The notes beneath the pieces are model-generated. The model ran no database searches and had not been told where the DNA came from. It worked only from the letters and a program-made list of their open reading frames with translations. This document shows positions 36,857 through 64,000 of a stretch of DNA of 64,000 nucleotides, piece by piece; positions within the stretch are counted from its first letter, which is position 1; each line of letters starts with the position of its first letter. Source of the DNA: an uncultured Candidatus Saccharibacteria bacterium (GTDB lineage: Bacteria; Patescibacteriota; Minisyncoccia; Phycocordibacterales; Phycocordibacteraceae). The position numbers and the translations under genes are program-made. The stretch is taken from the NCBI GenBank assembly GCA_964446735.1, contig CAYUQB010000001.1:380460-444459 (forward strand). The letters are read 5' to 3'.

Positions 36857-36867
36857 ATCAGAACTAG

Positions 36868-37249: not shown

Positions 37250-37290
37250 TTCGGCAGGCATAATAGCACAGCCCTCCCCCGCCCCACTAG

Positions 37291-37362
37291 TGCTCTCGCC
37301 AGGACTCGAACCTGGAACAGCGGTTCCGAAGACCGATGTGATATCCATTTCACCACGAGAGC
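37291..37362 (-). tRNA. tRNA-Arg (anticodon TCG), anticodon stem has one 27-43 mismatch
   Basis: GCTCTCGTGGTGAAATGGATATCACATCGGTCTTCGGAACCGCTGTTCCAGGTTCGAGTCCTGGCGAGAGCA; anticodon loop CTTCGGA. Confidence 0.55.
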
Positions 37363-37424
37363 TCGTGCATCTCATACTACCTTCCGCCTAGGCGAATGGC
37401 CACTCGCATACTAGTATTTTTCTA

Positions 37425-40113: not shown

Positions 40114-41031
40114 CTATTGCTGACGGGAGTGGAACCGTTTATGAATTTCGCGTAAATGTGAGTCGGTAACGTGTGTATAGATCTGAGTAGTATTGATAGA
40201 CGCGTGCCCAAGAAGGGCCTGAACGCTACGTAAATCGGCGCCGTTAGATAAAAGATCGGTGGCGAACACATGACGAAGCGTGTGGGGCGTGACCTTGGTG
40301 GTAATGCCTGCTTTGGCAGCGTACGTCTTAATGTGTCGTTGCACATCTCGGGGGGTAATGCGGTGGAGTCGATTTGGTCGCCCTTCGACAAAAAGAGCTT
40401 CTTCCATGTCTTTGCGTTCTTTTAGGTACTCCATGACCGCAGCTTTCGCAGCAGGCGAGAGAAAGACTACTCGAACTTTCTCACCCTTACCTCGCACGGA
40501 CAGGTCATCGCGGGATAGATCGATATCAGCATTCAAGGCACAAAGCTCTGCGACACGTAGGCCAGTTGAGAAAAGAAGCTCCAATATGGCTTTATCGCGC
40601 AACAACCTAATACGTTTGTCTTGATCTTCTTCCTTCTTCAGCGCGTCCTCTGGAGCACGAAGGAGTCGAGTTAGTTCCTGAGCAGTGACGACGTCGATCT
40701 GTCGTTCGGGGAGTTTTGCAAGTTCAATACGTTCCGGATTTAGGCCCTCAATACCACGCCTACGCAGATACTTGAGGAATGCTCGCAGTGCGATGAGGTA
40801 GTAGTTTTGCGTGCGACGCTTCATGGTCGCATTCCCCGTACCCGGCTGACGATTGAGCCAGAGTCGGAATTCGCGAATTCGATCTTCCGTAATGTCTCCG
40901 ACCTGCTCGATCTTCATTTGATCGAAGAACACTGCAAGGTAGTGGTCGTAGTTTTCGACTGTTTTCACGGCTCGCCCCTTCTCAATCTCGGTGTATTCGA
41001 GAAATTCGCGCTTCATTTGAGCCGCATTCAT
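40114..41031 (-). CDS. xerC: tyrosine site-specific recombinase XerC/XerD family
   Basis: RDKAILELLFSTGLRVAEL, HTLRHVFATDLLSNGADLRSVQALLGHASINTTQIYTHV with catalytic R..HxxR..Y; start set at internal MNAAQMKREF (ORF track opens at 41145). Confidence 0.8.
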   Translation of the reverse strand: MNAAQMKREFLEYTEIEKGRAVKTVENYDHYLAVFFDQMKIEQVGDITEDRIREFRLWLNRQPGTGNATMKRRTQNYYLIALRAFLKYLRRRGIEGLNPERIELAKLPERQIDVVTAQELTRLLRAPEDALKKEEDQDKRIRLLRDKAILELLFSTGLRVAELCALNADIDLSRDDLSVRGKGEKVRVVFLSPAAKAAVMEYLKERKDMEEALFVEGRPNRLHRITPRDVQRHIKTYAAKAGITTKVTPHTLRHVFATDLLSNGADLRSVQALLGHASINTTQIYTHVTDSHLREIHKRFHSRQQ

Positions 41032-41068
41032 AGCAAAAGTATACCAAGCAGAGTGCGCACAATATGGA

Positions 41069-41093
41069 GCTGCCCGGGGAGGACCCGGGCAGC
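41069..41093 (-). terminator. hairpin after GC-rich ORF 41102-41437
   Basis: gctgcccggg-gagga-cccgggcagc. Confidence 0.45.
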
Positions 41094-41101
41094 CACAAGG
41101 T

Positions 41102-41437
41102 TCATTGTGCAGCAACGCGAAGCGCTTGCGGTGCGATGCACTCAACGACCCAACATCCGGCGCCGCATCTCATGAGCGCAACGTGCTCGAACATCAGGTG
41201 CGCTTCCTGCTGAGCAGGGAAGTGCCAGTAGCAGAACTGTTCGTCCTGACACTGCGGTGGTGCAAGGAAGCGGTCGAACCCCGCGGTCTCGGCAACCGGC
41301 ACGAGCACCACAAAGCGGTCGATGTCGCTTTGCAAGCCAGCAAAGTGTCGAGCGGAGAAGTCTGCGACATCCTCTTCGTCGAGGGAGGGGCAGACTTCGC
41401 TCGGACACCAAGAAATTATTCGTACAAAAGTGTCCAT
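41102..41437 (-). CDS. hypothetical Cys-rich protein (GC-rich cassette)
   Basis: ORF 41102-41488, probably starting at MDTFVRIISW; elevated GC; no family recognised. Confidence 0.35.
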   Translation of the reverse strand: MDTFVRIISWCPSEVCPSLDEEDVADFSARHFAGLQSDIDRFVVLVPVAETAGFDRFLAPPQCQDEQFCYWHFPAQQEAHLMFEHVALMRCGAGCWVVECIAPQALRVAAQ

Positions 41438-44953: not shown

Positions 44954-46054
44954 CTAGCGGCAGAACGGATTCGCCGCCTTGTGAACTTCGAAGTGGAGGT
45001 GGTTACCGGTAGATTTACCAGTAGATCCCACATATCCGATGAGTTCACCCTTACCAACGGTTGCCCCTGCGGCCGTTGCCGTACGTGTCATGTGGGCATA
45101 TAGCGTCTGGGCACCGCTCGCATGGTTGATCACGACGTAATTGCCGTACCCGCCGTTCCACCCACCATTTGCGAGAGAGATGATGACCTTACCAGCTGCA
45201 GATGCATAAATAGGAGTGCCATTCGGAGCAGCGATATCGACACCGTTATTACCGTGACGAGTCTGCGTACAGCGTCCAGCTGGAAGCGGATTGCTGAAGC
45301 CTGAAATCGTCGGGAGCGTTACCGTCTTCTTGGCACCTGGCTTCTTCGTCGGTGTGGGGGCCGCTACCGGTTCGCCGTTCGGGATGATGATCTTTGTCCC
45401 TACAATGAGCGGTTCACCCGAATCAAGGCCGTTATATGAAAGTATGTCCTCGGTACTGCCGCCGTACTTCTTTGCAAGTGATGCGACGGTCTCACCCGAA
45501 CGTACCGTGTGTTCAATACCAGTGACCGGAAGGATGACGAGGGTCTGGCCAGGGGTGAGTTTGCTCTTAGCCGTGAGATTGTTGGCCCAGAGGATGGTAT
45601 TTACTGAAATACCGTTCTTCGCCGCAATGGAAGAGAGCGTATCGCCTGATTCGATGATATAGGTACGGATTTCGCCACCTTCTGCTCGATGCACGATATC
45701 GGCAAGGGTCCCATCTGGACCAGCGTTCGCCATAAGTGCGGAACCTTCGGAAACATATACGCCACTCTCTCCCTTTTCCGGATTCGGATCAGGGTTTAAT
45801 GCAGCGGCAAGGAGCGGGAGGTTACTGCTATGGACGATAGGGGGCTCACCTCCTGACGAAGACGCACGCAGCATAGTAAAAGGCCAAAACGCGTTGGTCG
45901 CGATGGGAAGGGAAAGCAATGAGGCGCCCGCTAGAAGCGCCAAGGTGCCAGTGGCTACCGTGTTCCAATATGCATTCCGACTGCGCGAGCGATTATGAGT
46001 TGAATCGGAAGGTGTAGGTGTGGAAGAAATACGTGGTCGAGGGCGTTCAGGCAA
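44954..46054 (-). CDS. LysM-domain M23 peptidoglycan endopeptidase
   Basis: two LysM repeats (YIIESGDTLSSIAAKNGISV; HTVRSGETVASLAKKYG) and M23 core HMTRTATAAGATVGKGELIGYVGSTGKSTGNHLHFEV. Confidence 0.8.
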   Translation of the reverse strand: MPERPRPRISSTPTPSDSTHNRSRSRNAYWNTVATGTLALLAGASLLSLPIATNAFWPFTMLRASSSGGEPPIVHSSNLPLLAAALNPDPNPEKGESGVYVSEGSALMANAGPDGTLADIVHRAEGGEIRTYIIESGDTLSSIAAKNGISVNTILWANNLTAKSKLTPGQTLVILPVTGIEHTVRSGETVASLAKKYGGSTEDILSYNGLDSGEPLIVGTKIIIPNGEPVAAPTPTKKPGAKKTVTLPTISGFSNPLPAGRCTQTRHGNNGVDIAAPNGTPIYASAAGKVIISLANGGWNGGYGNYVVINHASGAQTLYAHMTRTATAAGATVGKGELIGYVGSTGKSTGNHLHFEVHKAANPFCR

Positions 46055-50008: not shown

Positions 50009-51507
50009 GTTCCCTCCGTAAACCCGTTGCGCTATTCCTTTGTGGACTCATAGTCGCAGGCGGTGCGGTTGGACTTGCTCCTCGACCGGCGCATGCGCAG
50101 TTGTTCGGAGCTTCCCTCGTCCTCGACCCGGTAAACCTTGTGCAGAATACAATCTCGGCGGTCGCGAACGCGAAGACCCTTCTCAATCCTATCTTCTATC
50201 GCATTGCACAGGCAGCCATTCAATCGATGGTGCGCAGTACCGTTAACTGGATAAACAATGGATTCGAAGGTTCCCCGGCATTCGCTACGGATCTTAAATA
50301 CACCCTCCTGGATGCAGCCGACCGGGAAGCGGAACGGTTCGTGCGACAGATTGGAAGCGACCTATCAATAAGCTCTCCGTTTCAGAATAGGATCGCCCAG
50401 AACGTACTTGCTGCATACTACCTGTCCACCAGTCGAGATGGGTTCGCACTCGCTAATCCCTATACGCTCAACCGGGTGAGCGAAGACGATGCGGCATTCT
50501 TGCGTGGTGATTTTACGAAGGGCGGGTTCTCGGCATGGTTCGCCGCCACGTTGAATCTTCCGAATACGCCTCGTGGCTTTAATGAACTAGCTCGTTCAGC
50601 GTTCTATGATCGAGTCGCCGATGTTAAAGGTCAGATTCACGAAGAAGTTGGGTGGGGGGATGGCTTTCTGTCCTGGCGTAAGTGTGACAAAGAGGGAACC
50701 AAACTCGTCGACAATTCGAAGACTTCCACTATTACGACACTTGATGGCAAGCAAGAGCAGCTTAAGACACTCAACCTGCAGGAAAAGAAAACCTGTCTTG
50801 AGAGTCACATTGAAACCCCCGGCTCAATTATTTCCTCAGCCGGGGCCAAGGCTCTCGGTCTCGGAGCAGATTCACTGATCCAAGCGGATAGTTTCGACGA
50901 AATCGTAAATGCGCTTCTTGGACAACTCATGAACCAGGTACTTGGTGGGGGAGGAGGGCTTCGTGGGGTATCACGTCCGTCAGCAGCACGGGGCGGCGGA
51001 ACCTACTTCGATCAACAAACAAGTACGACCGCGAGTGCTGGAGTCTCAGTCGTAAGTTCATTCACTCAGATACTCGACGAACAAGCGACACAAATCCAAA
51101 TATATCTGCGTAATTGGCAGACCATTAGTGCTGCTGCAGTGGCTGCGAAAGCTGCACTTGAAGCAAGCACCTGCACCGCTAACAAAGACTCAATTATTAG
51201 TACTCAGATAGAACCAGTTATTACTCGCGCAGCGACAATTGCAGGAAGTATACCCAGCGTACTTTCAGAGATTGAACGTATTCGCTCGTCAGCGTTGAGT
51301 GTCGTTACGGACGATACCACTGAGCAACTCACAGTGCTCCAGCAAGCAAATGCTGACTACCAAAATCTGCTATCTAATACCGCATTCCCAAGCGTGAGTG
51401 ATATGACATATGCGATAGAGCAGTCGCAAGACACCGGCAACGAAACACCCGCATCACTCCTTACGGAACTCAACCGCATTGCAGCACAAGCCCGGTGCAG
51501 TACCTAA
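50005..51507 (+). CDS. secreted hypothetical protein
   Basis: signal peptide ...GLAPRPAHA|QLF; 500 aa; 4-bp overlap with upstream gene. Confidence 0.4.
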   Translation: MSSLRKPVALFLCGLIVAGGAVGLAPRPAHAQLFGASLVLDPVNLVQNTISAVANAKTLLNPIFYRIAQAAIQSMVRSTVNWINNGFEGSPAFATDLKYTLLDAADREAERFVRQIGSDLSISSPFQNRIAQNVLAAYYLSTSRDGFALANPYTLNRVSEDDAAFLRGDFTKGGFSAWFAATLNLPNTPRGFNELARSAFYDRVADVKGQIHEEVGWGDGFLSWRKCDKEGTKLVDNSKTSTITTLDGKQEQLKTLNLQEKKTCLESHIETPGSIISSAGAKALGLGADSLIQADSFDEIVNALLGQLMNQVLGGGGGLRGVSRPSAARGGGTYFDQQTSTTASAGVSVVSSFTQILDEQATQIQIYLRNWQTISAAAVAAKAALEASTCTANKDSIISTQIEPVITRAATIAGSIPSVLSEIERIRSSALSVVTDDTTEQLTVLQQANADYQNLLSNTAFPSVSDMTYAIEQSQDTGNETPASLLTELNRIAAQARCST

Positions 51508-51511
51508 ACGT

Positions 51512-54500
51512 ATGGCAACGTACTTGCACATAATTCGCAGCCTTGGACTCGGGATACTGATAGCTGTATCCCTTCTGCTCTTTGCTGCTCCTAGTGCGAA
51601 TGCCGCCGATCCCGCTATCGCGATACCGAACGGGAAAACACTTAAACCAAACGGTCAGGTGTGTAAGGCTATCAACCCGCTCACCGGCATGCAGGATGGC
51701 TCAGTCGCACTGGTACTTGAGACCGGGGGATTCTGCCAGCTGCAGTTTACTGACGGCACGCAACTCACGGTTGAATTCAGTGCAGGGAAGCAGACCCAGA
51801 CCGGAACACTTCGGGATGCGAACGGTAAAACTATCGGTACCCCAGAAACGAAGTCGTGGATTGAAGGAGCGCAAGAAGCTGTTGATCAAGCGGCAGCGGC
51901 AACAACGGCAGCAGAGAAAAGCGCCGTCACTGCAGCACGTGCGGCGGTCGCTGCACCATCAACCGGAGCCCGAAATACGCCACTCTCAGCCAATGAAGCG
52001 ACCGCATTGTACAAAAAAGTTGAGTACTTGAGTTCCCGTAACCTCATAACGATCGCAGAAAGGGATAAGCTCAATAGCATCATATTTGCAGCAGGTACGG
52101 GGGGTGCGTCACAGGCACAGCTCGATAGTGTCCGAAAAATGGGGACGGCGGTCGATACACTTAATGCAAACGTTGGGCGGTCCGCCGACGTAAATACCGC
52201 TGCTAAAGAGGCAGCGTCTGCACAACAGGAGACCGCCGCTGAAGCAGAGAAGTCCTGCAACATTGTGAGTTTCAATCTTGGGACCTGTCTTCAGAGCATT
52301 ATGTGGGCAATTATTAAGAAAATCGGTCTTTTCTTCCTCTACCTCGCTGCATTCTTTGCTGGGTTTGCAGGCTTCCTCTTCAATTGGATTATTTACATAA
52401 CGGTATTTCAGTTTGGAAACTTGATTGGAAATAACGCGGGCATGCTTGCGGCATGGGGTGTACTGCGCGATATCGGCAATCTGGTACTTCTGTTCGGATT
52501 CATTTTCATGGGCTTGAGTACCATTCTGAGTCTTCCTGGAAATGAGTTCACCGCCCGTAGAGCACTTCCTGCCCTCATCATTTTTGCCATACTCATGAAC
52601 TTCAGCCTCTTCGCTGCAGAGGCGGTTATTGATACGAGTAACGCGCTGGGGACCACACTATACCGACAAGCCGCGAACGGCATGTGCGGGGAAGGTGAGT
52701 CAATGCTTACGTGTGTCACCCAAAAGGGAATCGGCGGACGCATCATGCAAATCACCGGAATCGCCTCAATATTTAGTCTCGACCCCGACAAAGAGGATGT
52801 GATCGCTAACGATGATCTTGGTGGAGCGATAGAAGTCATCGGCCTCACCATATTTGCGGCGGTCACTGCATTTGTGTTCCTGGCTGCGGTCTTCATGCTC
52901 ATTGCGCGTGCAATCATGCTCGCCTTCCTTATGGCGGTGTCGCCCATCGGATTTGCTGGCATGGCGATACCACCCCTTCACCGCTACGCCTCTATGTGGT
53001 GGGAACAACTACTCAAGCAGTCATTCTTTGCACCTATATATATCCTCCTGGTGCTTATTAGCATTAAATTCATGGAGGGAATTATCGTGGCGCTGAATGC
53101 CGCGGCAGGAGCAGGTAGCACCACTGAAGTTTCTACACTCGCAAGCGCCTTCAGCCGTTCTGGCATCACGAACGTGAGCATGGTGGTCAACTTCATGCTC
53201 ATTACTGGCTTCATGCTTGGTGCAGTCATAATCGCCAAAAGCATGGGTGCGGCAGGGGCAAGTGGCGCTACTCGCATGGCTGGTGCAGTGGTCTTTGGTG
53301 GTATGGCTCGGGCTTCAAACTTCGGCATCGGCGGAGCATCACGACTTGCACGACTAGGAGTACAGCGCACACTTGGCAAAAGCGACAGTGCATTCGTTCG
53401 TGGGATTGGTTCTGGTGCCTCAGCCTTTCTCAAGGGTGGTGAGAAACTCAACACTGACTTGCGTGGTGTAGCAGGGAAGCGCGGAGCGGACCTCTTTGGC
53501 GCTCCTGCACAAAAAGCATCGTATGACGACGTGCAGAACAAGATCCAGGAAGTACGAGAAGGTATTCGTGCGAATCAGGCTACATTCGATCGCGATGCCT
53601 CGCTCCAGCGCCTGCGAAGTGAGGTTGGTAGAAAGGGAGGTCTCTCTCCAGAAAGCGAGCGTTTCCTCGCAACCCTTTCTGCGGACGAAATTGCACACGA
53701 TCATGACCTTGAACACAAGATTGGAGATCTTGCACCGCTTCTGTCTGCAAGCCAGTTCGAAAACCTCACGCGCAGCGACAAGGTTCCGCAGAAACTCAAG
53801 GACGAGGCTCGTCGCGAACGCTATGCTGAACTCAAGGATGCAATTCTCAATTCTAGGAAGGGTGGTATACGCAAGATGACTCCAAAGGATCTCGAGCAGT
53901 TCTTCCTTTCGCCGATCTATGCAGAACTTAAGACGGAGAACGAAGAAGCACTCAAGGAATTCGTGACACTCATGAATGGTGGCCAGTACGATACTCTACG
54001 CGCAAGTACTGTGCTCACGAATGCACAACGTTCAGAAATCAAGAGGTGGCGCGATGATGATCGCTTCAACTTCGGTGAATTCAACGATCTCCGCAGTGGC
54101 AAGCAGGTTGAATTCAAGCAGGCTATCAGCATGGACGGTAACCGTAAGCCGCTCTATGTCGACCCATCCACGGGTAGAGTCACCGAAGATGTCACCTCAG
54201 TTAAGGCTACCCGTATCGACCGCACGCTCGACGATCTCAACACCGCCGATCGAGCAAAGCTTGAAGACAAGATCCTCGCTCGTGAGGAAGTATTTACGCG
54301 TCTCGCACCGGAAGACTTCGCCGCGATCCAGCGTGCCGACAAGCTCGAACCTCCGCAACGAAGAGCCGTCAGTGCTCACCTTAATGCTGTATTTAATGAG
54401 AAATCAGCTCGCGGCGATCGCTTCCGCGCGTACCGCGATACCATGAGCGATAATGCGTGGAAGTCGATGAAAGCCTTCTACCAACTTAGTACGGACAAAG

Positions 54501-54559
54501 CGAAGACGAAACGCTCGAAAGCAACAACTGACGATGGTAGCGACGACGGCACAACATGA
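51512..54559 (+). CDS. giant polytopic membrane protein, candidate VirB6/TrbL-like channel component
   Basis: signal/anchor, ~270-aa extracytoplasmic domain, 6-7 TM helices, ~450-aa charged C-terminal domain; ORF opens at 51479, start set at MATYLHII. Confidence 0.4.
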   Translation: MATYLHIIRSLGLGILIAVSLLLFAAPSANAADPAIAIPNGKTLKPNGQVCKAINPLTGMQDGSVALVLETGGFCQLQFTDGTQLTVEFSAGKQTQTGTLRDANGKTIGTPETKSWIEGAQEAVDQAAAATTAAEKSAVTAARAAVAAPSTGARNTPLSANEATALYKKVEYLSSRNLITIAERDKLNSIIFAAGTGGASQAQLDSVRKMGTAVDTLNANVGRSADVNTAAKEAASAQQETAAEAEKSCNIVSFNLGTCLQSIMWAIIKKIGLFFLYLAAFFAGFAGFLFNWIIYITVFQFGNLIGNNAGMLAAWGVLRDIGNLVLLFGFIFMGLSTILSLPGNEFTARRALPALIIFAILMNFSLFAAEAVIDTSNALGTTLYRQAANGMCGEGESMLTCVTQKGIGGRIMQITGIASIFSLDPDKEDVIANDDLGGAIEVIGLTIFAAVTAFVFLAAVFMLIARAIMLAFLMAVSPIGFAGMAIPPLHRYASMWWEQLLKQSFFAPIYILLVLISIKFMEGIIVALNAAAGAGSTTEVSTLASAFSRSGITNVSMVVNFMLITGFMLGAVIIAKSMGAAGASGATRMAGAVVFGGMARASNFGIGGASRLARLGVQRTLGKSDSAFVRGIGSGASAFLKGGEKLNTDLRGVAGKRGADLFGAPAQKASYDDVQNKIQEVREGIRANQATFDRDASLQRLRSEVGRKGGLSPESERFLATLSADEIAHDHDLEHKIGDLAPLLSASQFENLTRSDKVPQKLKDEARRERYAELKDAILNSRKGGIRKMTPKDLEQFFLSPIYAELKTENEEALKEFVTLMNGGQYDTLRASTVLTNAQRSEIKRWRDDDRFNFGEFNDLRSGKQVEFKQAISMDGNRKPLYVDPSTGRVTEDVTSVKATRIDRTLDDLNTADRAKLEDKILAREEVFTRLAPEDFAAIQRADKLEPPQRRAVSAHLNAVFNEKSARGDRFRAYRDTMSDNAWKSMKAFYQLSTDKAKTKRSKATTDDGSDDGTT

Positions 54560-55332
54560 TTCCCGACGAAACTGCCATTGATAAAGCCCTAGAGACCGCA
54601 CCGCAACCCGTGTCTGACTTCATCGTGGGTGGCCATCTCGCCAACGCGGTCGTCGCCATTGCGCATGAACACCAACTTCATGTCGATACAATCGGAACGC
54701 TCGCAGAGCTTTCTCGTAACATGCTCCTCGGACTTTCAAGCCCTGCCGAAACACTGGGCGAGCTCATTGTTGCAGGTGTGGACACTGCAACTGCACAAAC
54801 AGTGCTCGCAGACCTTAACGTGAAGGTGTTTATGCCAGTTCGAGACGCGGTGAAGACTGGTACTAATCCGTTCGCACTCGATCGGGATACAGATGAGACG
54901 CCCGAGGTACGCACGGCAGCTGTCGCACCCACACCTGCACCAGCGTCGTCCGCAAGGCCTTCCTCCCCGCCCCTCGTACCACCGCTAGAGCTTGTCGAAC
55001 GTCCGGTACCTGCACCTATTGTTCCGCCAGTGTCCGTAAGTCGGCCTGTCGAAGTTCCAGTGCCGAACGTCGTTGCACCCAACGTGGCAGCCTCAGGTCT
55101 GCCGGACGAAGCGGTACGCACGATGGCATCGGATATGCAGGCAGTGAAAGAACACCGCACGCCCACCCCAATAGTTCCTTCCGTGGTGATTCCAACGACA
55201 CAAGTACAGACAATAGCAGCACCGCCACTTCCTCCGACGCCACCTCGCACCGCACCTCCTCCGGCAAATCTTCCTGGTGCAGCAGCGGTAAAGCCATACA
55301 GTGTAGATCCGTATCGTGAACCGATAGAGTAG
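54556..55332 (+). CDS. hypothetical Pro-rich protein
   Basis: 258 aa; PTPAPASSARPSSPPLVPPLE and PPLPPTPPRTAPPPANLP tracts; translationally coupled to upstream gene. Confidence 0.35.
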   Translation: MIPDETAIDKALETAPQPVSDFIVGGHLANAVVAIAHEHQLHVDTIGTLAELSRNMLLGLSSPAETLGELIVAGVDTATAQTVLADLNVKVFMPVRDAVKTGTNPFALDRDTDETPEVRTAAVAPTPAPASSARPSSPPLVPPLELVERPVPAPIVPPVSVSRPVEVPVPNVVAPNVAASGLPDEAVRTMASDMQAVKEHRTPTPIVPSVVIPTTQVQTIAAPPLPPTPPRTAPPPANLPGAAAVKPYSVDPYREPIE

Positions 55333-55378: not shown

Positions 55379-55801
55379 ATGGAGTACCAGGTACCGCAGT
55401 TCATCGAGGTAGAGGACAAGATTTTCGGTCCATTCACCCTAAAACAGTTTATCTACCTTGCTGGCGGAGGCGGTCTTTCAGCAGTCATTCTCCTGTATGT
55501 GCGTCCACTCTTTCTCGCATTCGTTCTTGTTGCACCTATCGCAGCGCTCTCTGCCGCACTTGCATTCTATAGAGTAAACAACAAGTCTTTTGTTGAGGTG
55601 CTCGAAGCAGCGTTCAACTATTACACCAAGGGACGTCTCTACCTGTGGCGTAAGGAGAAAAAGGAAGAGTCTGCTTCGGTTCCCCAGGCACCGACACCAG
55701 TAGTTCCCGAACGTCAAAAACTTGGCCTGTCCCAGCGCAAGCTTCAGGATCTGGCATGGTCGCTGGATATTAAGGACGCAAGTTCGAACCAGAATTCATA
55801 A
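55379..55801 (+). CDS. PrgI/VirB3-like small T4SS membrane protein
   Basis: MEYQVPQFIEVEDKIFGPFTLKQFIYLAGGGG + two TM helices; pattern shared by PrgI/TcpE-type proteins that precede VirB4. Confidence 0.55.
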   Translation: MEYQVPQFIEVEDKIFGPFTLKQFIYLAGGGGLSAVILLYVRPLFLAFVLVAPIAALSAALAFYRVNNKSFVEVLEAAFNYYTKGRLYLWRKEKKEESASVPQAPTPVVPERQKLGLSQRKLQDLAWSLDIKDASSNQNS

Positions 55802-55804
55802 GAT

Positions 55805-56443
55805 ATGCCTACTCCCCAAGCAGCGCAGGCATTCGTGCCCGTCAAAGAAGTCCGCAACGGTGTCGTTATCCTCAAGGAGGGAGGGTACCGGGGTATCCTC
55901 ATGTGCTCAGCAATGAACTTCGCGCTTAAATCTGAACCGGAGCAGGCAGCCATTATCGGAGGGTTCCAATCCCTCCTCAATACGCTCGATTTCTCAATCG
56001 AAATGGTCGTGCACTCTCGCCGTATGGACATTCGTCCATATCTCGCACTCCTTGAGGAGCGACTCGCGGCTCAACAGAGTGAACTTATGCGCATTCAACT
56101 ACGTGAGTACATTAGCTTCATTCGAGGATTTACCGAGAGTACCGACATCATGACCAAGCTCTTCTATGTAGTCGTGCCATATACCCCAGCGGTTGCAGTG
56201 AAGGTAAGTCAGGCATTCCCACTTCCAGGACGAAAGAAGGAAGGCGCTCAGGGAGCCACTGAATCATTCGAAGAGGATCGGGTGCAGCTTGAGCAACGCA
56301 TGCTTCTAGTTGCAAGCGGACTTTCGGCCGCAGGTATTCGCGCGGTTGCACTTGATACAGAAGAAATCATCGAGCTTCTATACCGTTCCTTCAACATTGG
56401 GCAAACCGAGACGCCAATACGTCTCGCTGAAGCCGGCATCTAA
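55805..56443 (+). CDS. VirB4-family ATPase, N-terminal portion (separate reading frame)
   Basis: VPVKEVRNGVVILKEGGYRGILMCSAMNFALKSEPEQAAIIGGFQSLLNT matches the N-terminal domain of Gram-positive VirB4 homologs (Tn916 Orf16/PrgJ/TcpF style). Confidence 0.6.
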   Translation: MPTPQAAQAFVPVKEVRNGVVILKEGGYRGILMCSAMNFALKSEPEQAAIIGGFQSLLNTLDFSIEMVVHSRRMDIRPYLALLEERLAAQQSELMRIQLREYISFIRGFTESTDIMTKLFYVVVPYTPAVAVKVSQAFPLPGRKKEGAQGATESFEEDRVQLEQRMLLVASGLSAAGIRAVALDTEEIIELLYRSFNIGQTETPIRLAEAGI

Positions 56444-56444
56444 T

Positions 56445-58265
56445 ATGGCACTCCTCGACTTCCTCTCCCGCTCAAAGAAAAATGAAGTACCGACTATGAC
56501 ACCGGTGCTTCCAAAGGATATTTACTCCCAGGGGGTGCTCGAGCTCGCTGACGCCATTGCACCAGCAGCACTTCAGGTAGGTTCAAAGGACATCGAGCTT
56601 GGTGAGAAGGTATCGCGTTCCTTCTACACGATCTCGTACCCTCGATTCCTCACTGATGGTTGGTTCATGGAGATCATTAATTTGGCACGAGAATTTGATA
56701 TTGGTATCTTTGTGCACCCAATCGAGACCGGACAAGCACTTCGTAACTTCCAAAAAAAGGTTGCCGAGGTCCAAAGCCAGATTAGTGAGCGAGAAGACAA
56801 AGGGTTGGTGCGTGATCCGCTTCTTGATACGGCGTACCAGGACCTCGAGAACCTGCGCGATCAACTTCAACAAGCACAAGAGCGCCTTTTTGATGTTGGG
56901 CTCTATATGACACTGTACGAAAAAAACCGCGAACTCCTGGACCGGGTGGAAGGGGAAGTGCGTGGAATTCTCGATGCCAAGCTGGTGTATACCAAACCGG
57001 CACTGTTCCAACAAGAGCAGGGGTTCCGCTCAACACTTCCGCTTGCGCTCGATGAGCTCGAGGTCCACTCGAAACTGAATTCATCCCCACTTTCGTCCGT
57101 CTTTCCCTTTGTCTCGTTCGATCTCACGAGCGACCGCGGCATTCTATTTGGCATTAACCGCCACAACTCCTCACTCATTCTGTTCGATCGATTCTCCCTT
57201 GAGAACTACAACTCAGTAGTGTTCGCAAAGTCGGGATCCGGAAAATCCTATGCGGTGAAACTGGAGATCCTCCGATCCTTGATGTTCGATACGGATGTCA
57301 TTGTTATCGATCCTGAGCGTGAATATGAGTACTTGGCGGAAGCGACTGGCGGAAGGAACTTCAACATTTCACTCTCAAGCGACCACCACATTAATCCGTT
57401 TGATCTCCCGCCGGTGCGGGAAGGGGAGGAGCCTGGTGATGTGCTCCGTGCAAATATCATTAACCTGGTCGGCCTCTTCCGACTCATGCTCGGAGGACTT
57501 TCTCCTGAAGAGGATGCGATTGTCGACCTTGCCATCACCGAAACATACGCGCTCAAAGACATCACGCCTGATCGTGATTTCACTGGCATGGAACCTCCGC
57601 TTCTTTCTGATTTCGAGGTTGTGCTCGCTGGTATGGAGGGTAGCGATTCTCTCGTACAACGACTCTCCAAGTACACCCAAGGAACGTGGTCAGGGTTTAT
57701 TAATCGCCCCACCAATATCGATATTAATAAGCAGTTCGTGGTGTTCTCCGTGCGTGATATGGAAGACGAGTTGAAGCCGGTGGCAATGTACATCGTGACG
57801 CATCACATTTGGAACTCCGTCCGAAGAGAATTGAAGAAACGACTCTTGGTGATCGATGAGGCATGGTGGATGATGAAATCACCTGACACCGCATCGTTCG
57901 TTGCAATGCTTGCTAAACGCGGACGCAAGTACTACCTCGGCCTCGCAACCATCACGCAGGATGTGGAAGACTTCCTTCATTCAGAGTATGGCGGCACCAT
58001 CATCAAGAACTCGTCGATTCAACTACTTCTCAAACAGTCTCCGACTGCAATCGATATGCTCAAGAGCGCGTTCAATCTTACCGAGCAAGAGAAATTCCTG
58101 TTGCTTGAGTCAGGAGTAGGCGAGGGGCTCTTCTTTGCAGGTCAGAAACACGTCGCCATAAAAATAGTCGCTTCCTACACCGAGGATCAGATCATCACCT
58201 CAGATCCCTCACAGCTGCTTGCTATCCGACGTGAGAAGGAACGCCTGCAGGGTCAGGGAGGTTAG
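56445..58265 (+). CDS. VirB4-family conjugation/T4SS ATPase, C-terminal ATPase portion
   Basis: Walker A VVFAKSGSGKSY, Walker B LLVIDEAWWMM, RKYYLGLATITQDVEDF; start overlaps upstream stop in ATCTAATATGG (frame +2). Confidence 0.8.
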   Translation: MALLDFLSRSKKNEVPTMTPVLPKDIYSQGVLELADAIAPAALQVGSKDIELGEKVSRSFYTISYPRFLTDGWFMEIINLAREFDIGIFVHPIETGQALRNFQKKVAEVQSQISEREDKGLVRDPLLDTAYQDLENLRDQLQQAQERLFDVGLYMTLYEKNRELLDRVEGEVRGILDAKLVYTKPALFQQEQGFRSTLPLALDELEVHSKLNSSPLSSVFPFVSFDLTSDRGILFGINRHNSSLILFDRFSLENYNSVVFAKSGSGKSYAVKLEILRSLMFDTDVIVIDPEREYEYLAEATGGRNFNISLSSDHHINPFDLPPVREGEEPGDVLRANIINLVGLFRLMLGGLSPEEDAIVDLAITETYALKDITPDRDFTGMEPPLLSDFEVVLAGMEGSDSLVQRLSKYTQGTWSGFINRPTNIDINKQFVVFSVRDMEDELKPVAMYIVTHHIWNSVRRELKKRLLVIDEAWWMMKSPDTASFVAMLAKRGRKYYLGLATITQDVEDFLHSEYGGTIIKNSSIQLLLKQSPTAIDMLKSAFNLTEQEKFLLLESGVGEGLFFAGQKHVAIKIVASYTEDQIITSDPSQLLAIRREKERLQGQGG

Positions 58266-58274
58266 TAGCGAGAT

Positions 58275-58757
58275 ATGGCAACGAGGGAAGCCGCGAAGGT
58301 AGCGTACCGAGTGAGCGGCATCCAGGAACTGTTACTTAAACTCACCGCGGTAGTTCTCGACGGTGTTGGGTTCTTGCTCATGCTCACTGTTATCGGCGAA
58401 GTGGGTACTGAGGTCATTGGTCTTACGGGTGATGCGCTCTTCTTTATTTGGTTCTGGATGCTTGGCGCAAAGTTCTTGACCGGTCAGGCGGGAAGGAAAA
58501 TAGTCACGTTAGCTGGAAACGCGCTTGTTGAGGCTGTTCCATTTGCTAATGGCGTCTATCCTGGCTTTTCCATTGCAGTATGGCGACTCGTAAAGATTAT
58601 GAAAGAAGAGGACGAAGAGGAAGCACGGAACGCTGCTCGGAAGGCACGACAGGAGGACGAAGCTCGTATTCGACGCGTGCAAGCGATTCTTGCTGAGCGC
58701 GCACGACGCCAGGCCGCCAATACCAATACCCAGGAACCGGAAAGACAGGCCGCGTGA
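58275..58757 (+). CDS. hypothetical membrane protein with charged coiled-coil tail
   Basis: 2-3 TM helices then EEDEEEARNAARKARQEDEARIRR. Confidence 0.35.
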   Translation: MATREAAKVAYRVSGIQELLLKLTAVVLDGVGFLLMLTVIGEVGTEVIGLTGDALFFIWFWMLGAKFLTGQAGRKIVTLAGNALVEAVPFANGVYPGFSIAVWRLVKIMKEEDEEEARNAARKARQEDEARIRRVQAILAERARRQAANTNTQEPERQAA

Positions 58758-59743
58758 GGCGCTATACTACCTCTATGCGGCGGATGGCCCTTCTCGTCCT
58801 TCTTGCACTTGTCGCACTTCCTGCGCATGCGCAAATCAGCTCCACTGAATCCGTGGTGCTTTCTATTACACCAGAGAATCCGCGACCGTACGACACGGTA
58901 ACCGTGCTTCCGGAGAGTAGCTTGATAGATCTCGCGTCAGCCAAGATTAGCGTACTGGTGAACGGCACAGCCGTAGTGAGCGGGGGAGTACAGCGAGTTC
59001 CAGTAACGGTAGGGGGACCAGGAGACCGCACGACCATTCGTGTTGATGCGGTCGTTGGTGGCAAGACGTATACGGCCCAGCGGGTCATTCGACCAGCTGA
59101 CGTGTCGCTTATCACTGAGCCAGTTTCAAGCACACACCCTTTCTATCGGGGTGCACCGCTCATAGCGCCTAGTGGCCGCATCCGCGTCATTGCACTAGCT
59201 GATTTGCGAACAGCTCCTGCCACCCGTATTGCTCCAGCAAATCTTGTGTATACATGGAGCTGGGGGGACCGCGTACTTGCTGAATATTCAGGCATTGGGC
59301 GCTCGACCTTAAACCTTGCCGCCCCGGTTCGATATCGTGATGCTGAAATTAGCGTTACGGTAACCGATGCAACATCAAACCTCATCGCAAGCGCCTCGAC
59401 CTTCATTTCCCCAGTTGATGCAATTGCCCGCATCTATCCGACTGATCCACTTTCGGGTCCAGACTTCGACCATGCACTTTCAGGACGATTCGGACTTTCA
59501 GGGGAAGAGGCGGCATTTAGGGGAGTGGGGTACTTCTTTGGTGCGAAGCCATCCCTTACTTGGTCGATCAATAGCCAGCCAGCCAGCAACGACAACGAGG
59601 TGACGGTCCGTACAACGGGGAGTGGCCAGGGCTCAGCTGCGTTATCACTCACGGCACTTGAAAGCACGGCACAACAGAGTGCGACCGCGCGACTTCCAGT
59701 CGATTTTGGAACCGGAAGATCATTTAATATCTTTGGATTCTAG
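58754..59743 (+). CDS. secreted hypothetical protein
   Basis: signal peptide MRRMALLVLLALVALPAHA|QI; beta-rich. Confidence 0.4.
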   Translation: MRRYTTSMRRMALLVLLALVALPAHAQISSTESVVLSITPENPRPYDTVTVLPESSLIDLASAKISVLVNGTAVVSGGVQRVPVTVGGPGDRTTIRVDAVVGGKTYTAQRVIRPADVSLITEPVSSTHPFYRGAPLIAPSGRIRVIALADLRTAPATRIAPANLVYTWSWGDRVLAEYSGIGRSTLNLAAPVRYRDAEISVTVTDATSNLIASASTFISPVDAIARIYPTDPLSGPDFDHALSGRFGLSGEEAAFRGVGYFFGAKPSLTWSINSQPASNDNEVTVRTTGSGQGSAALSLTALESTAQQSATARLPVDFGTGRSFNIFGF

Positions 59744-59744
59744 T

Positions 59745-60710
59745 ATGATGCGCACGCTACTTTTCATCTCGCTTCTGCTTGCTCCCGCACTGGTATTTGC
59801 GCAGGGCACAGACTTTGTACCCTTGCTTCCATCGCTTCCCGGTATTGATACGCTTCAAACGCAAGATTCGCTCGCTCCATTCCTCTCTCAAATCTACAAG
59901 ATCTGTATCGGGCTTGCTGCCGTACTTGCGGTGCTCCAGATCATGCGGGCAGGAATCATGTACATGGGAGGCGACAGTATCACGGAGAAAAAGGAGGCGC
60001 GGGGTCTTATCGGCGCAGCGCTTGCGGGACTGTTGTTGGTTCTTTCACCTGTTATTGTGTTCAGCCTCATTAATCCGCAGATCCTTGAGCTCGATATTGG
60101 CGGCGACCGCTTGCGGTCTAACGTCGAGAGTCCGGGTCCTACAAGCTATACGGTTATTCCGGCAACTACCGCCGAGGAATGTAAAAAGAAGGGAGGCACC
60201 CCTACAGGAAACCCTCCCAACATTTTGTGCAAAGCACCCACCACCGAAGCGACCACTGCTGCGTCGTATGGTAATTGCAGCGATTACACAAACTTCCTGG
60301 TTACGACCGTTGATGGGAATTGTAACAACGCTGCAAATAACGACACTACGTACACCCGCATTCAGGTAAACAACCGATGTTGCTATGGGGGCAGCATCCA
60401 AACTGGATTCAAATGCTGTGCGGTGAACAAGAAAGACGTGACGGCACCACTCCCGGATGCAACAAAGCCCATAACTGTTATGGAATACGTTGACGGTACT
60501 ACCAAAAACTACGGACCACTCTCTGCCGCTGATAAAGAATCGTTCAGTAAATTCTCTGCCGCCTGTACCGCAGCACGAGGCAAGGTCATAAGAACGCAAA
60601 AAACCATTCGCGACTGTACTGCTGAGGAAGAAAAACTTATGACCGATGTCCCCGCTGAACGCCGACAATACATTGGATGCAAGACGGTGGATGTAGGATG
60701 TGCCTTATAG
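59745..60710 (+). CDS. VirB2/TrbC-like pilin with Cys-rich C-terminal extension
   Basis: signal peptide MMRTLLFISLLLAPALVFA|QG, then TM hairpin (IYKICIGLAAVLAVLQIMRAGIMYM - loop - LIGAALAGLLLVLSPVIVFSLI) typical of T4SS pilins, then ~200 aa with 12 Cys. Confidence 0.45.
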   Translation: MMRTLLFISLLLAPALVFAQGTDFVPLLPSLPGIDTLQTQDSLAPFLSQIYKICIGLAAVLAVLQIMRAGIMYMGGDSITEKKEARGLIGAALAGLLLVLSPVIVFSLINPQILELDIGGDRLRSNVESPGPTSYTVIPATTAEECKKKGGTPTGNPPNILCKAPTTEATTAASYGNCSDYTNFLVTTVDGNCNNAANNDTTYTRIQVNNRCCYGGSIQTGFKCCAVNKKDVTAPLPDATKPITVMEYVDGTTKNYGPLSAADKESFSKFSAACTAARGKVIRTQKTIRDCTAEEEKLMTDVPAERRQYIGCKTVDVGCAL

Positions 60711-60712: not shown

Positions 60713-61951
60713 ATGCGACGAATACTTCTCATCATCGGGGCGGTCATCATCCTCATCGGGATTGGAATTGGTATTTACTTCCTCTTCTTCCGAGGTGGCC
60801 CAGGACTGGTCATAGGTCCAGGCGATTTCCCAGGGTCAGGAAATACCGACGGCGAGCCAGAAGATGGGGTAGTCGGGGTGCAGGACATTGGGGTCGCACT
60901 CCCTGGTGCTGGTACGGAGATCGCACCACGGTTCCTGCGAATTTCGGATCGACCAGTTGCGTTCGGTGCGGCAGCGGTCTTTGTGCCGGGAACGACTCCG
61001 GTAGCAACCACGTCAGCAAGCAGCACCGTCGTAGCTCGGGATCCTGATGTGCGCGTGATGTATCTCGAACGCGAGAGTGGAAACGTCTACGCCTTTGAAG
61101 TCCACGCCCGCACACAGACTCGACGCTCAAACAAAACACTTCCTGGTATACAGGAAGCGAACTGGCTTTCTGATGGCTCCCTTGCGTTTGTGCGATTTCT
61201 TCAAGGAACAGGAGATGATGAACGTGTTGATACCTATGCACTCCCGGCTGATGGAGAAAATGGCTATTTCCTTGAACAGAACCTCGCCCAAGTCCTGGTG
61301 AAGGGAACAAGTACTTTGGTGACCGTACGCTCAACAACCGAAGGGTCTCAAGCGTCTGTTTCTACACCCACTGGCGGCGGTCTGCGCACACTTTTCTCGA
61401 CCCCACTTTCCTCAATTCTGATCGGCTACTCGGGTGCAAATTTCGTTGTGTGGACTAAGGGGTCTGCGCAAGCCAATAGCTACGCCTTCTTGGTTGATGC
61501 ACGAACCGGTGCGTTCACGCGTGCACTTGGTCCTTTGAAAGGATTTTCCGTGCTTCCAAGCCCAAGCGGCCGCTACCTTCTGTATAGCTACCTAGACCGA
61601 GGGAAGCTCGCGCTCGCAGCACTCGATCTCTCCACTCGAATTGCCACTCGGCTACCGCTTGCCACACTCCCAGAGAAATGTGCGTGGACCAGCGACGACC
61701 GAGCATTGTACTGTGGTGTCCCAACAGCGCTTCCTGGAACACTTCCTGATGACTGGTATCAAGGCGCCGTGCATTTTACCGACCGCATATGGAAAATCGA
61801 CTTGGGAAGTCGAGTGGCGACACTCGTCATAGATCCGAAGGAAGCAGGGGAGTTGGATGTTGACGCGGTTGGTCTTACGCTTGACCGCACGAATGACGTT
61901 CTGGTCTTCAAGAATCGACGTGACCACCTGCTCTACACCTACGACCTCTAG
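60713..61951 (+). CDS. membrane-anchored hypothetical protein (possible beta-propeller)
   Basis: MRRILLIIGAVIILIGIGIGIYFLFF anchor; ORF opens 60677. Confidence 0.4.
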   Translation: MRRILLIIGAVIILIGIGIGIYFLFFRGGPGLVIGPGDFPGSGNTDGEPEDGVVGVQDIGVALPGAGTEIAPRFLRISDRPVAFGAAAVFVPGTTPVATTSASSTVVARDPDVRVMYLERESGNVYAFEVHARTQTRRSNKTLPGIQEANWLSDGSLAFVRFLQGTGDDERVDTYALPADGENGYFLEQNLAQVLVKGTSTLVTVRSTTEGSQASVSTPTGGGLRTLFSTPLSSILIGYSGANFVVWTKGSAQANSYAFLVDARTGAFTRALGPLKGFSVLPSPSGRYLLYSYLDRGKLALAALDLSTRIATRLPLATLPEKCAWTSDDRALYCGVPTALPGTLPDDWYQGAVHFTDRIWKIDLGSRVATLVIDPKEAGELDVDAVGLTLDRTNDVLVFKNRRDHLLYTYDL

Positions 61952-62673
61952 ACCGTAGCGGGCGTTGGAGTGTTTGTGCGTCGCACAATGAATTCCTGGA
62001 AGATAGAAACGAGACTGCCGGTAATAAAGTAGAGGGCAATGGCGCCCGATGTGTACGCAGCAACGCCCACAATCAATGGGAGAATGTAGCGCATTTGGAG
62101 CGCCATTGCGCGTGCAATGTCAGCTCCTGGTCCTTCAACTTCTGCTGAAGGTGGCGGTACCGGAATGGCATACCAAGAATGAGCGAGCTGTGCGAATGCG
62201 GCAATGATCGCGAGGACAATGCTGTGACCGGTGATTGAAGCAAGTCCGAGAAATGCCACCGAGACAGCGTCCGGTACCGTAACAAACGGATACAGAATGC
62301 TTGGATCAATACCGGGCAATGACTTACTGCTAAATACCCAATACAGGCCAATAATCACCGGAATTTGAATAAGGAGGGGAAGGAGGCTGGCAAACGGATG
62401 CACCCCGTATTTCTTATACAGCGCCATCATTTCCTTCATCTGACGCTCTTGGTCGTTCTTGAATTTCTTGCGTACTTCCTTCAATTCAGGGTCCATTGCC
62501 TTCATGGCCTTTTGCGTGCGTGCGGCACTCATGGAGAGGGGCCAGAGCACAAACCGCACTATCAGCGTTGCCAGAATGACGGCAATCCCGAGGTCGCCCC
62601 CGGGGACTACATCAATCAATAAAACCAACAGGTTGTAGATCGGGGTATAGAGAACCGTGTGGAAGAATCCCAT
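61948..62673 (-). CDS. yidC: membrane protein insertase YidC/Oxa1 (short form)
   Basis: MGFFHTVLYTPIYNLL..., 241 aa, 5 TM; gene order with rnpA/rpmH. Confidence 0.85.
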   Translation of the reverse strand: MGFFHTVLYTPIYNLLVLLIDVVPGGDLGIAVILATLIVRFVLWPLSMSAARTQKAMKAMDPELKEVRKKFKNDQERQMKEMMALYKKYGVHPFASLLPLLIQIPVIIGLYWVFSSKSLPGIDPSILYPFVTVPDAVSVAFLGLASITGHSIVLAIIAAFAQLAHSWYAIPVPPPSAEVEGPGADIARAMALQMRYILPLIVGVAAYTSGAIALYFITGSLVSIFQEFIVRRTNTPTPATV

Positions 62674-62684: not shown

Positions 62685-63002
62685 TTATACTGTCGGCAAC
62701 GAAAGGAGAAGTCGATTGAGCTCGTCGGCAATCTTTTGGTAGGGAAGGGAAGGACCTCCGGCACGCGCATAGATAACGAATGAACGACCGGAACGTATAT
62801 GGGGTCGAATGGCAGTAAGTATGCGCCGCTTTAGTTGGTGCCGCGCAACAGACGTACGGGCAACCTTCTTTGAAACAACGGCGGCGGCCCTCCCTTCGAT
62901 TGAAGGCATAACAGTTACAGAAAAATGCTCAGACGCGGCACGATGGCCGCGTCCGGCGGTAGCGAAAGCGGCTCTAGAAAGACGCTTTGCTTTAGGAAGC
63001 AT
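62685..63002 (-). CDS. rnpA: ribonuclease P protein component
   Basis: MLPKAKRLSRAAFATAG...; basic 105 aa; position between rpmH and yidC. Confidence 0.8.
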   Translation of the reverse strand: MLPKAKRLSRAAFATAGRGHRAASEHFSVTVMPSIEGRAAAVVSKKVARTSVARHQLKRRILTAIRPHIRSGRSFVIYARAGGPSLPYQKIADELNRLLLSLPTV

Positions 63003-63004
63003 GG

Positions 63005-63148
63005 TTAGCCCGAAACGGAGAGGCTGGTGCGGCCTTTTCGGCGGCGGCGCGTGAGGACATTCTTGCCACCCGGAGTTGCAGAACGAGCTCGGAAACCGTG
63101 GGTAGTGGCGCGCTTACGCTTCTTGGGTTGATAGGTTCGCTTAGGCAT
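63005..63148 (-). CDS. rpmH: 50S ribosomal protein L34
   Basis: [47 protein letters not shown] (47 aa); found by manual translation, below ORF-track cutoff. Confidence 0.85.
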
Positions 63149-63155
63149 ATGATTG

Positions 63156-63164
63156 TTGTCCACA
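63156..63164. promoter_or_regulatory. candidate DnaA box (TTGTCCACA) in rpmH-dnaA intergenic region
   Basis: 8/9 match to TTATCCACA; partial TCCACAGA also at ~63275-63283 (reverse); putative oriC/dnaA promoter region. Confidence 0.35.
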
Positions 63165-63321
63165 GGATAGTACCAAGTTCTCCACTGGTGGGCAAGAACG
63201 CCTCATCCATAGGCTCATTTCTCAAGCTTTTTGAGCCACTAGCACACAGAGGGAACACCACGCAAGAGCAATTTTCTGTGGAGGTGTACGGACGGCATGC
63301 ACTCCCGTATACTTCACCCCA

Positions 63322-64000
63322 ATGCAGAAACTCGATGCGCGTGAACTTTGGGAATATGTGCTCACCCAAGTCGAGCTGTCTATCTCTCCTGCAAACTTCA
63401 ATACCTGGTTTCGGGATAGTTCTATCGTAAAAATCGAGGACGGTATTGTATATGTCGGTGTACCGAGCCAATTCTTTCGCGATTGGTACCTCAAGAAGTT
63501 CCATACGCTTCTTTTGAAAATCATCCGCTCTGTCTCATACGAGTACCGGAATATTGAATACGTGATTGTGAAGGACGATCGCCGGAAACCTAAGGAAATA
63601 CGTCGTTCTTCTGGGCCAATCCAAGTAGCAGAACTCCCACTCGACGAGTTCTATGTAAATAAAAGCGACAATCTCAACCCTCGCTATACGTTCGATACCT
63701 TCGTCGTCGGAGCGTTTAATGAGCTCGCGCATACTGCCGCGCAGGCGATTTTGAAGCGTCCAGGCATTATGTACAATCCACTCTTCATTTATGGAGAGAC
63801 TGGTCGTGGTAAGACACATCTTATCCAGTCCATTGGAAATCAGTACAAGAAGCTCTATCCGAACCGGAAAGTCTTCTACCTCACTGCGGACAAATTCGGA
63901 AACGAATACACCGATTCAATTCAACACGGAACGGCAAATCGCTTTAAAGAGAAGTACCGTCAGTACGACTTGCTCATCATGGATGATATTCAGTTCTTCG
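63322..64000 (+). CDS. dnaA: chromosomal replication initiator DnaA, N-terminal part (runs off window end)
   Basis: MQKLDARELWEYVLTQVELSISPANFNTWF...NPLFIYGETGRGKTHLIQSIGN (Walker A)...LLIMDDIQFF; upstream in-frame stop at 63232; not in ORF track because it is open-ended. Confidence 0.9.
   Translation, partial: MQKLDARELWEYVLTQVELSISPANFNTWFRDSSIVKIEDGIVYVGVPSQFFRDWYLKKFHTLLLKIIRSVSYEYRNIEYVIVKDDRRKPKEIRRSSGPIQVAELPLDEFYVNKSDNLNPRYTFDTFVVGAFNELAHTAAQAILKRPGIMYNPLFIYGETGRGKTHLIQSIGNQYKKLYPNRKVFYLTADKFGNEYTDSIQHGTANRFKEKYRQYDLLIMDDIQFF

Follow-up and report, generated by a model that had tools for sequence, protein, structure and literature searches.

Two adjacent genes that very probably supply one VirB4 ATPase in a chromosomal type IV secretion locus of Patescibacteria

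Is a VirB4 ATPase gene that is spread over two open reading frames (ORFs) in different frames a broken gene, a technical artefact or a pair of genuine genes? The question is raised by a 64,000-nucleotide (nt) stretch of contig CAYUQB010000001.1 (assembly GCA_964446735.1; the window), in which a short ORF with features of the VirB4 N-terminus (ORF1) is followed directly by a longer ORF with the ATPase motifs (ORF2; Table 1). An earlier note on this DNA had listed four explanations, namely a natural two-gene split, a frameshift pseudogene, a sequencing error and programmed frameshifting. We conclude with high confidence that both ORFs are real genes, each translated separately, and that they jointly supply the parts of one VirB4 ATPase, belonging to a chromosomal, conjugation-derived type IV secretion system (T4SS) in a Paceibacteria-like Patescibacteria genome. 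The pair is conserved, with its own conserved stop or start for each gene and purifying selection on each, and the two products are collinear with one VirB4.

The coordinates, lengths and stop and start positions that the earlier note gave for both ORFs agree with the ORF list and with the sequence. The letters at the junction read ATC TAA T ATG G, and the two start codons are offset by 640 nt (56445-55805, or 3x213+1), which puts ORF2 one frame ahead of ORF1. The change of frame therefore stands; its description as the +2 frame, where the offset gives +1, is a difference in labelling alone. Together the two products amount to 818 amino acids (aa). No Shine-Dalgarno-like motif was seen upstream of ORF2. 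Since neighbouring genes in this block of the window usually overlap at stop and start or lie a few bases apart, the 1-nt gap between ORF1 and ORF2 is unremarkable.

To see how the pair is arranged in relatives, 28 related loci were fetched from metagenome-assembled genomes (MAGs) of Patescibacteria, Parcubacteria or Paceibacterota, and 27 of them have downstream DNA. In all 27, homologues of ORF1 and ORF2 follow one another in this order and occupy separate ORFs. In close relatives, ORF2 begins at a conserved ATG GCN CTN CTN GAY (MALLD). The spacers between the two genes measure 1, 2, 3, 5, 97 or 102 nt, and relative frames of 0, +1 and +2 are all found, with a stop codon retained in the same-frame pairs. 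The TAAtATG junction itself is identical in six genomes (L007, L008, L012, L017, L018 and L019). In distant relatives (35-41% identity for ORF1 and 53-57% for ORF2), the distance from the ORF1 stop to the first ATG of ORF2 ranges from -1 to +34 nt. Comparison of the window with its relatives gave proportions of nonsynonymous differences (pN) of 0.13-0.24 for ORF1 and 0.10-0.15 for ORF2, with a saturated synonymous proportion (pS) of 0.70-0.79; given that pN is far below the saturated pS, both genes are under strong purifying selection. A comparison of orthologous loci had been proposed as a check, with conserved independent starts in related genomes to be taken as the sign of a genuine split. 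This is the arrangement in 27 of 27 loci, which upholds the natural two-gene split and tells against the other three explanations.

The ATPase part of the pair is readily assigned. ORF2 matches the NCBIfam equivalog conju_CD1110 (NF045971) with 361.1 bits, above the cutoff of 325 bits, and covers positions 185-734 of the 752 in this model; as it begins at position 185, its own polypeptide does not contain a complete VirB4 N-terminal domain. Pfam matches are to P-loop_TraG, AAA_10 and DUF87, and Walker A and B motifs can be read from the sequence (Table 1). The crystallised VirB4 C-terminal domain (PDB 4AG5) aligns to residues 230-586 of ORF2 only (E 9e-43), and TrwK, the single-chain VirB4 protein of plasmid R388, matches ORF2 at E 2e-6. 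Because 4AG5 aligns only to this segment, residues 1 to approximately 229 belong to the VirB4 N-terminal domain. By these alignments, ORF2 corresponds to the second half of that domain plus the C-terminal RecA-like ATPase domain.

For ORF1, a search of a 5.8-billion-protein collection returned 3388 homologues. Each of the best 120 is a standalone protein (202-239 aa), carries PF26593 (TraC-like) and comes from a Patescibacteria, Parcubacteria or Paceibacterota assembly. An ORF1 profile run against a library clustered at 50% identity gave 3031 matches, of which the best 150 are nearly all standalone, one of them (P0215) having 797 aa; many members of the family carry C-terminal extensions (300-440 aa). 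The PF26593 assignment was taken from the precomputed Pfam listing for P0001, which is 100% identical to ORF1, and for the identical 212-aa gene of locus L033. A local Pfam scan of ORF1 (even at E 10) and of the P0215 N-terminus was empty, and since PF26593 is apparently missing from the local copy, this is not evidence against homology. ORF1 also matches the VirB4_plasma model, at positions 104-233 of 894 (E 2.6e-6).

The ORF1 profile had no match at E 10 among PDB sequences, and the link to TrwK came from fold comparison alone. An AlphaFold2 (AF2) model of ORF1, built from a 39-sequence alignment, is of moderate quality (predicted local distance difference test score, pLDDT, 72.7). In a Foldseek search of the PDB with this model, the top 14 matches are TrwK/VirB4 chains (7O41/42/43 and 8RTB/8RTD), with probabilities of 0.90-1.00, template modelling (TM) scores of 0.35-0.57 and E values of 1.4e-3 to 8e-2; the matches that follow have probabilities below 0.3. 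It is the N-terminal region of TrwK/VirB4, and no other part, to which the predicted fold of ORF1 corresponds. In Patescibacteria, the most abundant T4SS component is TrsD, a remote homologue of the N-terminal portion of VirB4 (PMC12102498; Quiñonero-Coronel et al. 2025, Microb Genom). ORF1 has the context of such a protein, being a standalone product in the range of approximately 200-230 aa whose gene has a VirB3-like gene on one side and, on the other, the gene of a VirB4 ATPase without its N-terminus. By its score with the TrsD/TraD model (see below), ORF1 is a remote TrsD relative outside the NCBIfam subfamily, for which TrsD-like or, after Pfam, TraC-like would be the best name. It is equivalent to approximately the first 180-200 residues of a single-chain VirB4.

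The two products fit together along the length of single-chain VirB4. When ORF1 and ORF2 are concatenated, the alignment to VirB4_plasma crosses the junction (157-796 versus 236-893 of the model), and the score is 254.5 bits versus 226.5 bits for ORF2 alone. A standalone ORF1 homologue from Brevibacillus spans positions 2-175 of the CD1110 model and ORF2 starts at 185, so the alignments place the chain break at approximately position 180 of 752, inside the VirB4 N-terminal domain. The ATPase domain begins near ORF2 residue 230, so that the boundary between the N-terminal and ATPase domains differs from the break. The domain assignment made earlier, with the N-terminal domain on ORF1 and the Walker A/B ATPase domain on ORF2, is thus roughly right, but ORF1 is not the whole N-terminal domain, which includes ORF2 residues 1 to approximately 229. 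An alignment against single-chain proteins, suggested at the same time as a way to look for missing residues at the junction, finds ORF1 and ORF2 collinear with them, and a naturally fused protein lacks approximately 27 junction residues.

This fused protein, P0215 (797 aa; locus L029, 544-2937), is the equivalent of ORF1 plus ORF2 in another Patescibacteria genome. It is collinear with the pair at approximately 49% identity over the full length (401 identical columns), and the approximately 27 residues that it lacks match the C-terminal tail of ORF1 and the N-terminal head of ORF2. Residues 17-750 of P0215 align in a single stretch to positions 18-725 of TIGR00929 (VirB4_CagE), and the match of P0215 to the TrsD model (E 8.5e-8, 32 bits) is stronger than that of ORF1. 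We modelled P0215 as a natural-fusion proxy for the complex of the ORF1 and ORF2 products. The AF2 model (pLDDT 69.2) resembles full-length TrwK (E 3e-27, TM 0.57, 820-870 aligned columns), and its confidence is 56-61 at the junction-equivalent residues 211-230 versus 82 in the flanking blocks. The fused form is populous: 118 of the best 120 P0215 matches have 775-807 aa, with 59-90% identity, and many entries in the clade (P0215 and P0270-P0388) bear the name Candidatus Colwellbacteria in their NCBI titles. Two matches of 600 aa (P0288 and P0384) were considered as recent splits within the fused clade and rejected, given that the genes are interrupted by runs of N in the scaffolds. These runs, which represent scaffold gaps or masking, lie inside the gene at approximately 1545-1646 in L034 and 1803-2007 in L035. 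Before a shortened VirB4 call in a MAG scaffold is taken for a split, it should be checked.

How might two chains make one motor? The ORF1 and ORF2 polypeptides would associate non-covalently, rebuilding the N-terminal domain and with it a VirB4 protomer. The rebuilt protomer would then form a hexameric motor, which the N-terminal domain may dock on the PrgI/VirB3-like and VirB6-like membrane proteins. The basis for this proposal is provided by the R388 structures (7O41 and 8RTD) and by the VirB3-VirB4 contacts summarised in PMC12102498. Given the 1-nt TAA-T-ATG spacing and the lack of a Shine-Dalgarno-like motif, translational coupling of the two genes by termination-reinitiation is a reasonable inference, and such coupling would yield the two chains in roughly matched amounts.

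Some points weigh against a two-gene VirB4 in the form in which we propose it. The direct sequence link between ORF1 and staphylococcal TrsD is weak: ORF1 scores 16 bits (E 0.0078) with the NCBIfam TrsD/TraD model (NF041427) and so does not reach the cutoff of 200 bits, which pSK41 TrsD, as a positive control, exceeds with 227.6 bits. Likewise, an hhalign comparison of the ORF1 profile with the single pSK41 TrsD sequence gave E 0.035 and a probability of 1.5%. Binding of the ORF1 product to the ORF2 product, and the coupling of their translation, are both steps that we infer. Finally, a second assembly supports the pair, in that 5573 bp of a Logan contig from sequencing run SRR12113420, with the junction and both gene calls, match the window at 100% identity; the Logan contig may, however, derive from the reads of the source assembly, and the comparison is made at assembly level.

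The alternative that survives best, though we regard it as unlikely, is that ORF1 encodes an independent accessory protein, such as an adaptor or regulator, that has only a distant resemblance to the VirB4 N-terminus and is not a structural complement of ORF2. Such a role would accord with the TrsD homologues of Gracilibacteria, which are not adjacent to virB4 (PMC12102498), and with the C-terminal extensions found in many family members. However, the segment missing from ORF2, which starts at CD1110 position 185, is exactly the one that ORF1 provides, as judged from the 2-175 span of its Brevibacillus homologue. Moreover, a large clade fuses both parts in the same order into a full-length VirB4 architecture.

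A pseudogene, derived from a single-chain virB4 through a recent 1-nt insertion or deletion and now decaying, is very improbable. The summed length of 818 aa is indeed VirB4-like, and a single-chain version does exist in another Patescibacteria clade, but a recent lesion is at odds with a stop and an ATG that are conserved in 27 of 27 relatives, down to 35-55% identity, with differing gaps and frames, and decay is at odds with a pN far below pS in both ORFs. In addition, the end of ORF1 and the start of ORF2 contain extra residues; because the fused form lacks these tail residues, a single insertion or deletion cannot interconvert the split and fused forms. The apparent breaks within the fused clade (L034 and L035) are runs of N and quite unlike the junction in the window.

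Still less credible is a sequencing or assembly error that added or removed one base at the junction. Metagenome-type assemblies are prone to insertions and deletions in homopolymers, and the evidence here is at the level of assemblies. The junction, however, is not a homopolymer (ATCTAATATGG), the second assembly is identical over 5.6 kb, and with TAAtATG in six independent genomes and gaps of 2-5 nt in others, every genome would have to contain an error of the same kind. Programmed +1 ribosomal frameshifting or stop-codon bypass yielding one 818-aa VirB4, to which the 1-nt distance between stop and start and the +1 frame of ORF2 in this genome would lend themselves, can be dismissed with equal firmness, given the frames of 0, +1 and +2 among close relatives, the gaps of approximately 100 nt in L005 and L016, the lack of a conserved slippery site (the stop is preceded by various sense codons: ATC, AAT, ACC, GCA, CTA, CAA, AAC, AAA and others), and the conserved ATG of ORF2, whose product can be aligned to the N-terminus of standalone TrsE beginning at residue 2-3.

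The two-gene VirB4 of the window can be placed among known systems. The prototype of the split is the TrsD/TrsE (or TraD/TraE) pair of the staphylococcal conjugative plasmids pGO1 and pSK41 (MPF-FATA class, pGO1 subclass). As in the window, a VirB3-like gene (trsC) comes first in pSK41, followed by trsD (227 aa) and then by trsE (672 aa), which encodes the VirB4-type ATPase. ORF2 residues 3-574 align with residues 2-617 of pSK41 TrsE (E 8e-30), and because the two proteins align from their N-termini, the break point appears to be the same in pSK41 and in the window. The similarity of ORF1 to TrsD, by contrast, is marginal (E 0.008 and 0.035), and whereas pSK41 is a conjugative plasmid with a relaxase and a coupling protein, the locus in the window is chromosomal and origin-proximal.

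Single-chain VirB4/TraC/CagE proteins (TrwK of R388, PDB 7O41/8RTD; the CD1110 family; and the VirB4 of mycoplasma integrative and conjugative elements) share with ORF1 plus ORF2 a collinear sequence and a predicted fold, and with ORF2 the Walker A/B motifs and a C-terminal domain homologous to 4AG5. They differ in being one polypeptide instead of two, the break in the window falling at approximately residue 180 of 750-800. The fused Colwellbacteria-type proteins are likewise one chain, with approximately 27 junction residues fewer, yet their loci resemble the window in having PrgI upstream and a small ORF downstream, followed by yidC, rnpA, rpmH and dnaA; the P0215 locus also has dnaN.

Among Bacillota, Brevibacillus halotolerans CP139434 (L031) and the Clostridium perfringens plasmid pJFP838A (L032) have the same order of PrgI, ORF1 homologue and DUF87 ATPase. 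Their ORF1 homologues align to 91-92% of ORF1 (E 4e-11 to 1e-9). They are longer than ORF1 owing to a C-terminal extension (312-332 aa), the gaps between genes are wider (18 and 130 nt), and host and replicon are different. Both replicons are 400-kb plasmids typed as non-mobilizable, in which the module runs from a sigma-70 factor gene and clpX, via further genes, to PrgI, the ORF1 homologue and the DUF87 ATPase.

The closest match to the window is the T4SS described for Patescibacteria at the phylum level, which comprises a VirB4 clade specific to Patescibacteria and akin to the monoderm MPF-FATA class, with PrgI/VirB3, VirB6 and VirB2-like genes nearby, and is often situated near dnaA, rnpA, rpmH and ksgA (PMC12102498). 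With the CONJscan/MacSyFinder MPF-FATA TrsD profile, that study counted 2272 TrsD homologues in Patescibacteria, 1664 of them adjoining virB4. It lists the TrsD homologue of Candidatus Southlakia epibionticum ML1 among essential genes, on the strength of data that it cites from Wang et al. 2023 (Cell). The window has the same components (PrgI/VirB3-like, TrsD-like, VirB4 and VirB6-like proteins and a VirB2-like pilin candidate) in the same setting (dnaA, rnpA, rpmH, yidC and ksgA), differs in nothing substantive and is one more instance of this system. For the homology between TrsD and VirB4, PMC12102498 cites Guglielmini et al. 2014 (PMC4027160), in the main text of which the word TrsD does not occur. 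A term search of the text of PMC12102498 found no statement that TrsD plus VirB4 is collinear with single-chain VirB4, or that the two are fused in a Patescibacteria clade.

The neighbours of ORF1 and ORF2 are collected in Table 1.

Table 1. Features of the T4SS block and adjoining genes, in window coordinates.
Feature	Coordinates	Strand	Basis and remarks
VirB6/TrbL-like polytopic membrane protein, 1026-aa ORF	51479..54559	+	Pfam TrbL E 6.1e-5, 23.3 bits (cutoff 25.9); start maybe a later ATG
Pro-rich 258-aa protein, no Pfam match	54556..55332	+	ORF list; start overlaps upstream stop by 4 nt
PrgI family (VirB3-like small membrane protein)	55379..55801	+	Pfam PrgI E 1.6e-10, 41.8 bits (cutoff 27)
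ORF1, TrsD-like / 'TraC-like' protein	55805..56443	+	ATG 55805, TAA 56441-56443, 212 aa
Junction of ORF1 and ORF2 (TAA-T-ATG), with a 1-nt spacer	56441..56447	+	
ORF2, VirB4-family ATPase without the family's first ~180 residues	56445..58265	+	ATG 56445, 606 aa
Walker A AKSGSGKSY, ORF2 residues 261-269	57225..57251	+	Read from sequence
Walker B region LLVIDEAWW, ORF2 residues 467-475	57843..57869	+	Read from sequence
160-aa protein, no Pfam/NCBIfam match	58275..58757	+	ORF list
VirB2/TrbC-like pilin candidate, long C-terminal extension	59622..60710	+	Pfam TrbC E 6e-5, 23.6 bits (cutoff 27.9)
YidC	61948..62673	-	Pfam 60KD_IMP E 9e-40
dnaA 5' part, running off the window	63322..64000	+	Pfam Bac_DnaA E 4.5e-41, DnaA_N E 8.9e-12

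The gene set of the chromosomal Patescibacteria T4SS is thus found near dnaA, with the VirB6 and VirB2 calls resting on sub-threshold Pfam scores (23.3 and 23.6 bits). PrgI is also the upstream neighbour in L029, L031, L032 and L034. The 258-aa protein inserted between the VirB6-like and PrgI-like genes is very proline-rich in its C-terminal half. Judged by position, a small ORF follows the ATPase gene at the same place in L029 (163 aa), L033 (160 aa, with a sequence identical to that in the window) and L034 (135 aa). The C-terminal extension of the pilin candidate contains Cys. Because the upstream gene ends approximately 120 nt beyond the GTG listed as the start of the candidate, the real start is probably a pair of ATG codons near 59745. 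The T4SS block abuts yidC, rnpA and rpmH, and ksgA and uvrD are located just upstream; rnpA and rpmH (L34) are on the minus strand at approximately 62.67-63.2 kb, just upstream of dnaA, and the segment 61948-64000 is the replication-origin neighbourhood. A 170-aa ORF at 62992-63504 (minus strand) overlaps the rnpA/rpmH/dnaA region and is probably spurious. The 26 ORFs scanned, which are part of those in the window, yielded no relaxase or coupling protein.

Further from the block, a protein with LysM and M23 peptidase domains is encoded on the minus strand at 44954-46054, a few kb upstream of the T4SS genes; M23 and LysM are reported as additional domains in some VirB1 homologues (PMC12102498). 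A XerC/XerD-like tyrosine recombinase (Phage_integrase plus a SAM-like N-terminal domain) is encoded at 40114-41145 (minus strand). Four tRNA genes (Gly-TCC, Pro-TGG, Gly-GCC and Arg-TCG) occupy 35568-37362 on the minus strand, and the ORF at 37007-37414 (plus strand), which overlaps two of them, is probably spurious. At 25087-26877 (minus strand) lies a gene for a PilB-like ATPase of the type IV pilus/type II secretion family (T2SSE E 4e-124, plus MshEN), together with several unannotated genes of the same strand, and this block is probably a type IV pilus locus.

The two-gene split of VirB4 is real and ordinary, and it is already known from published work (PMC12102498). Only mildly new are the position of the break inside the N-terminal domain, the large clade of fused Patescibacteria proteins and the idea that this fusion may be secondary. 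For annotation, the gene pair should not be flagged as a disrupted virB4, and a 'hypothetical protein' of approximately 210 aa upstream of the ATPase can be recognised as the missing N-terminal piece of VirB4 (TrsD-like/TraC-like). That the motor would consist of two chains is useful knowledge for expression constructs or structural work, and the closely related split and fused forms are a natural experiment on the sites at which the VirB4 chain can be broken.

As to the origin of the two states, a neighbour-joining tree of the ATPase part (a rough tree of 31 sequences without bootstrap) has the fused clade nested within split lineages, and all outgroups are split, which suggests that the Colwellbacteria-like fusion is secondary. 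We tentatively propose, at slightly less than even credence, that the Patescibacteria T4SS had two genes from the outset, a state inherited in common with the TrsD/TrsE-type and megaplasmid systems of Bacillota, and that the single-chain form is a secondary re-fusion; we did not find this idea stated in PMC12102498. If true, evolution would have split and rejoined the VirB4 N-terminal domain, which would thus be a truly separable module.

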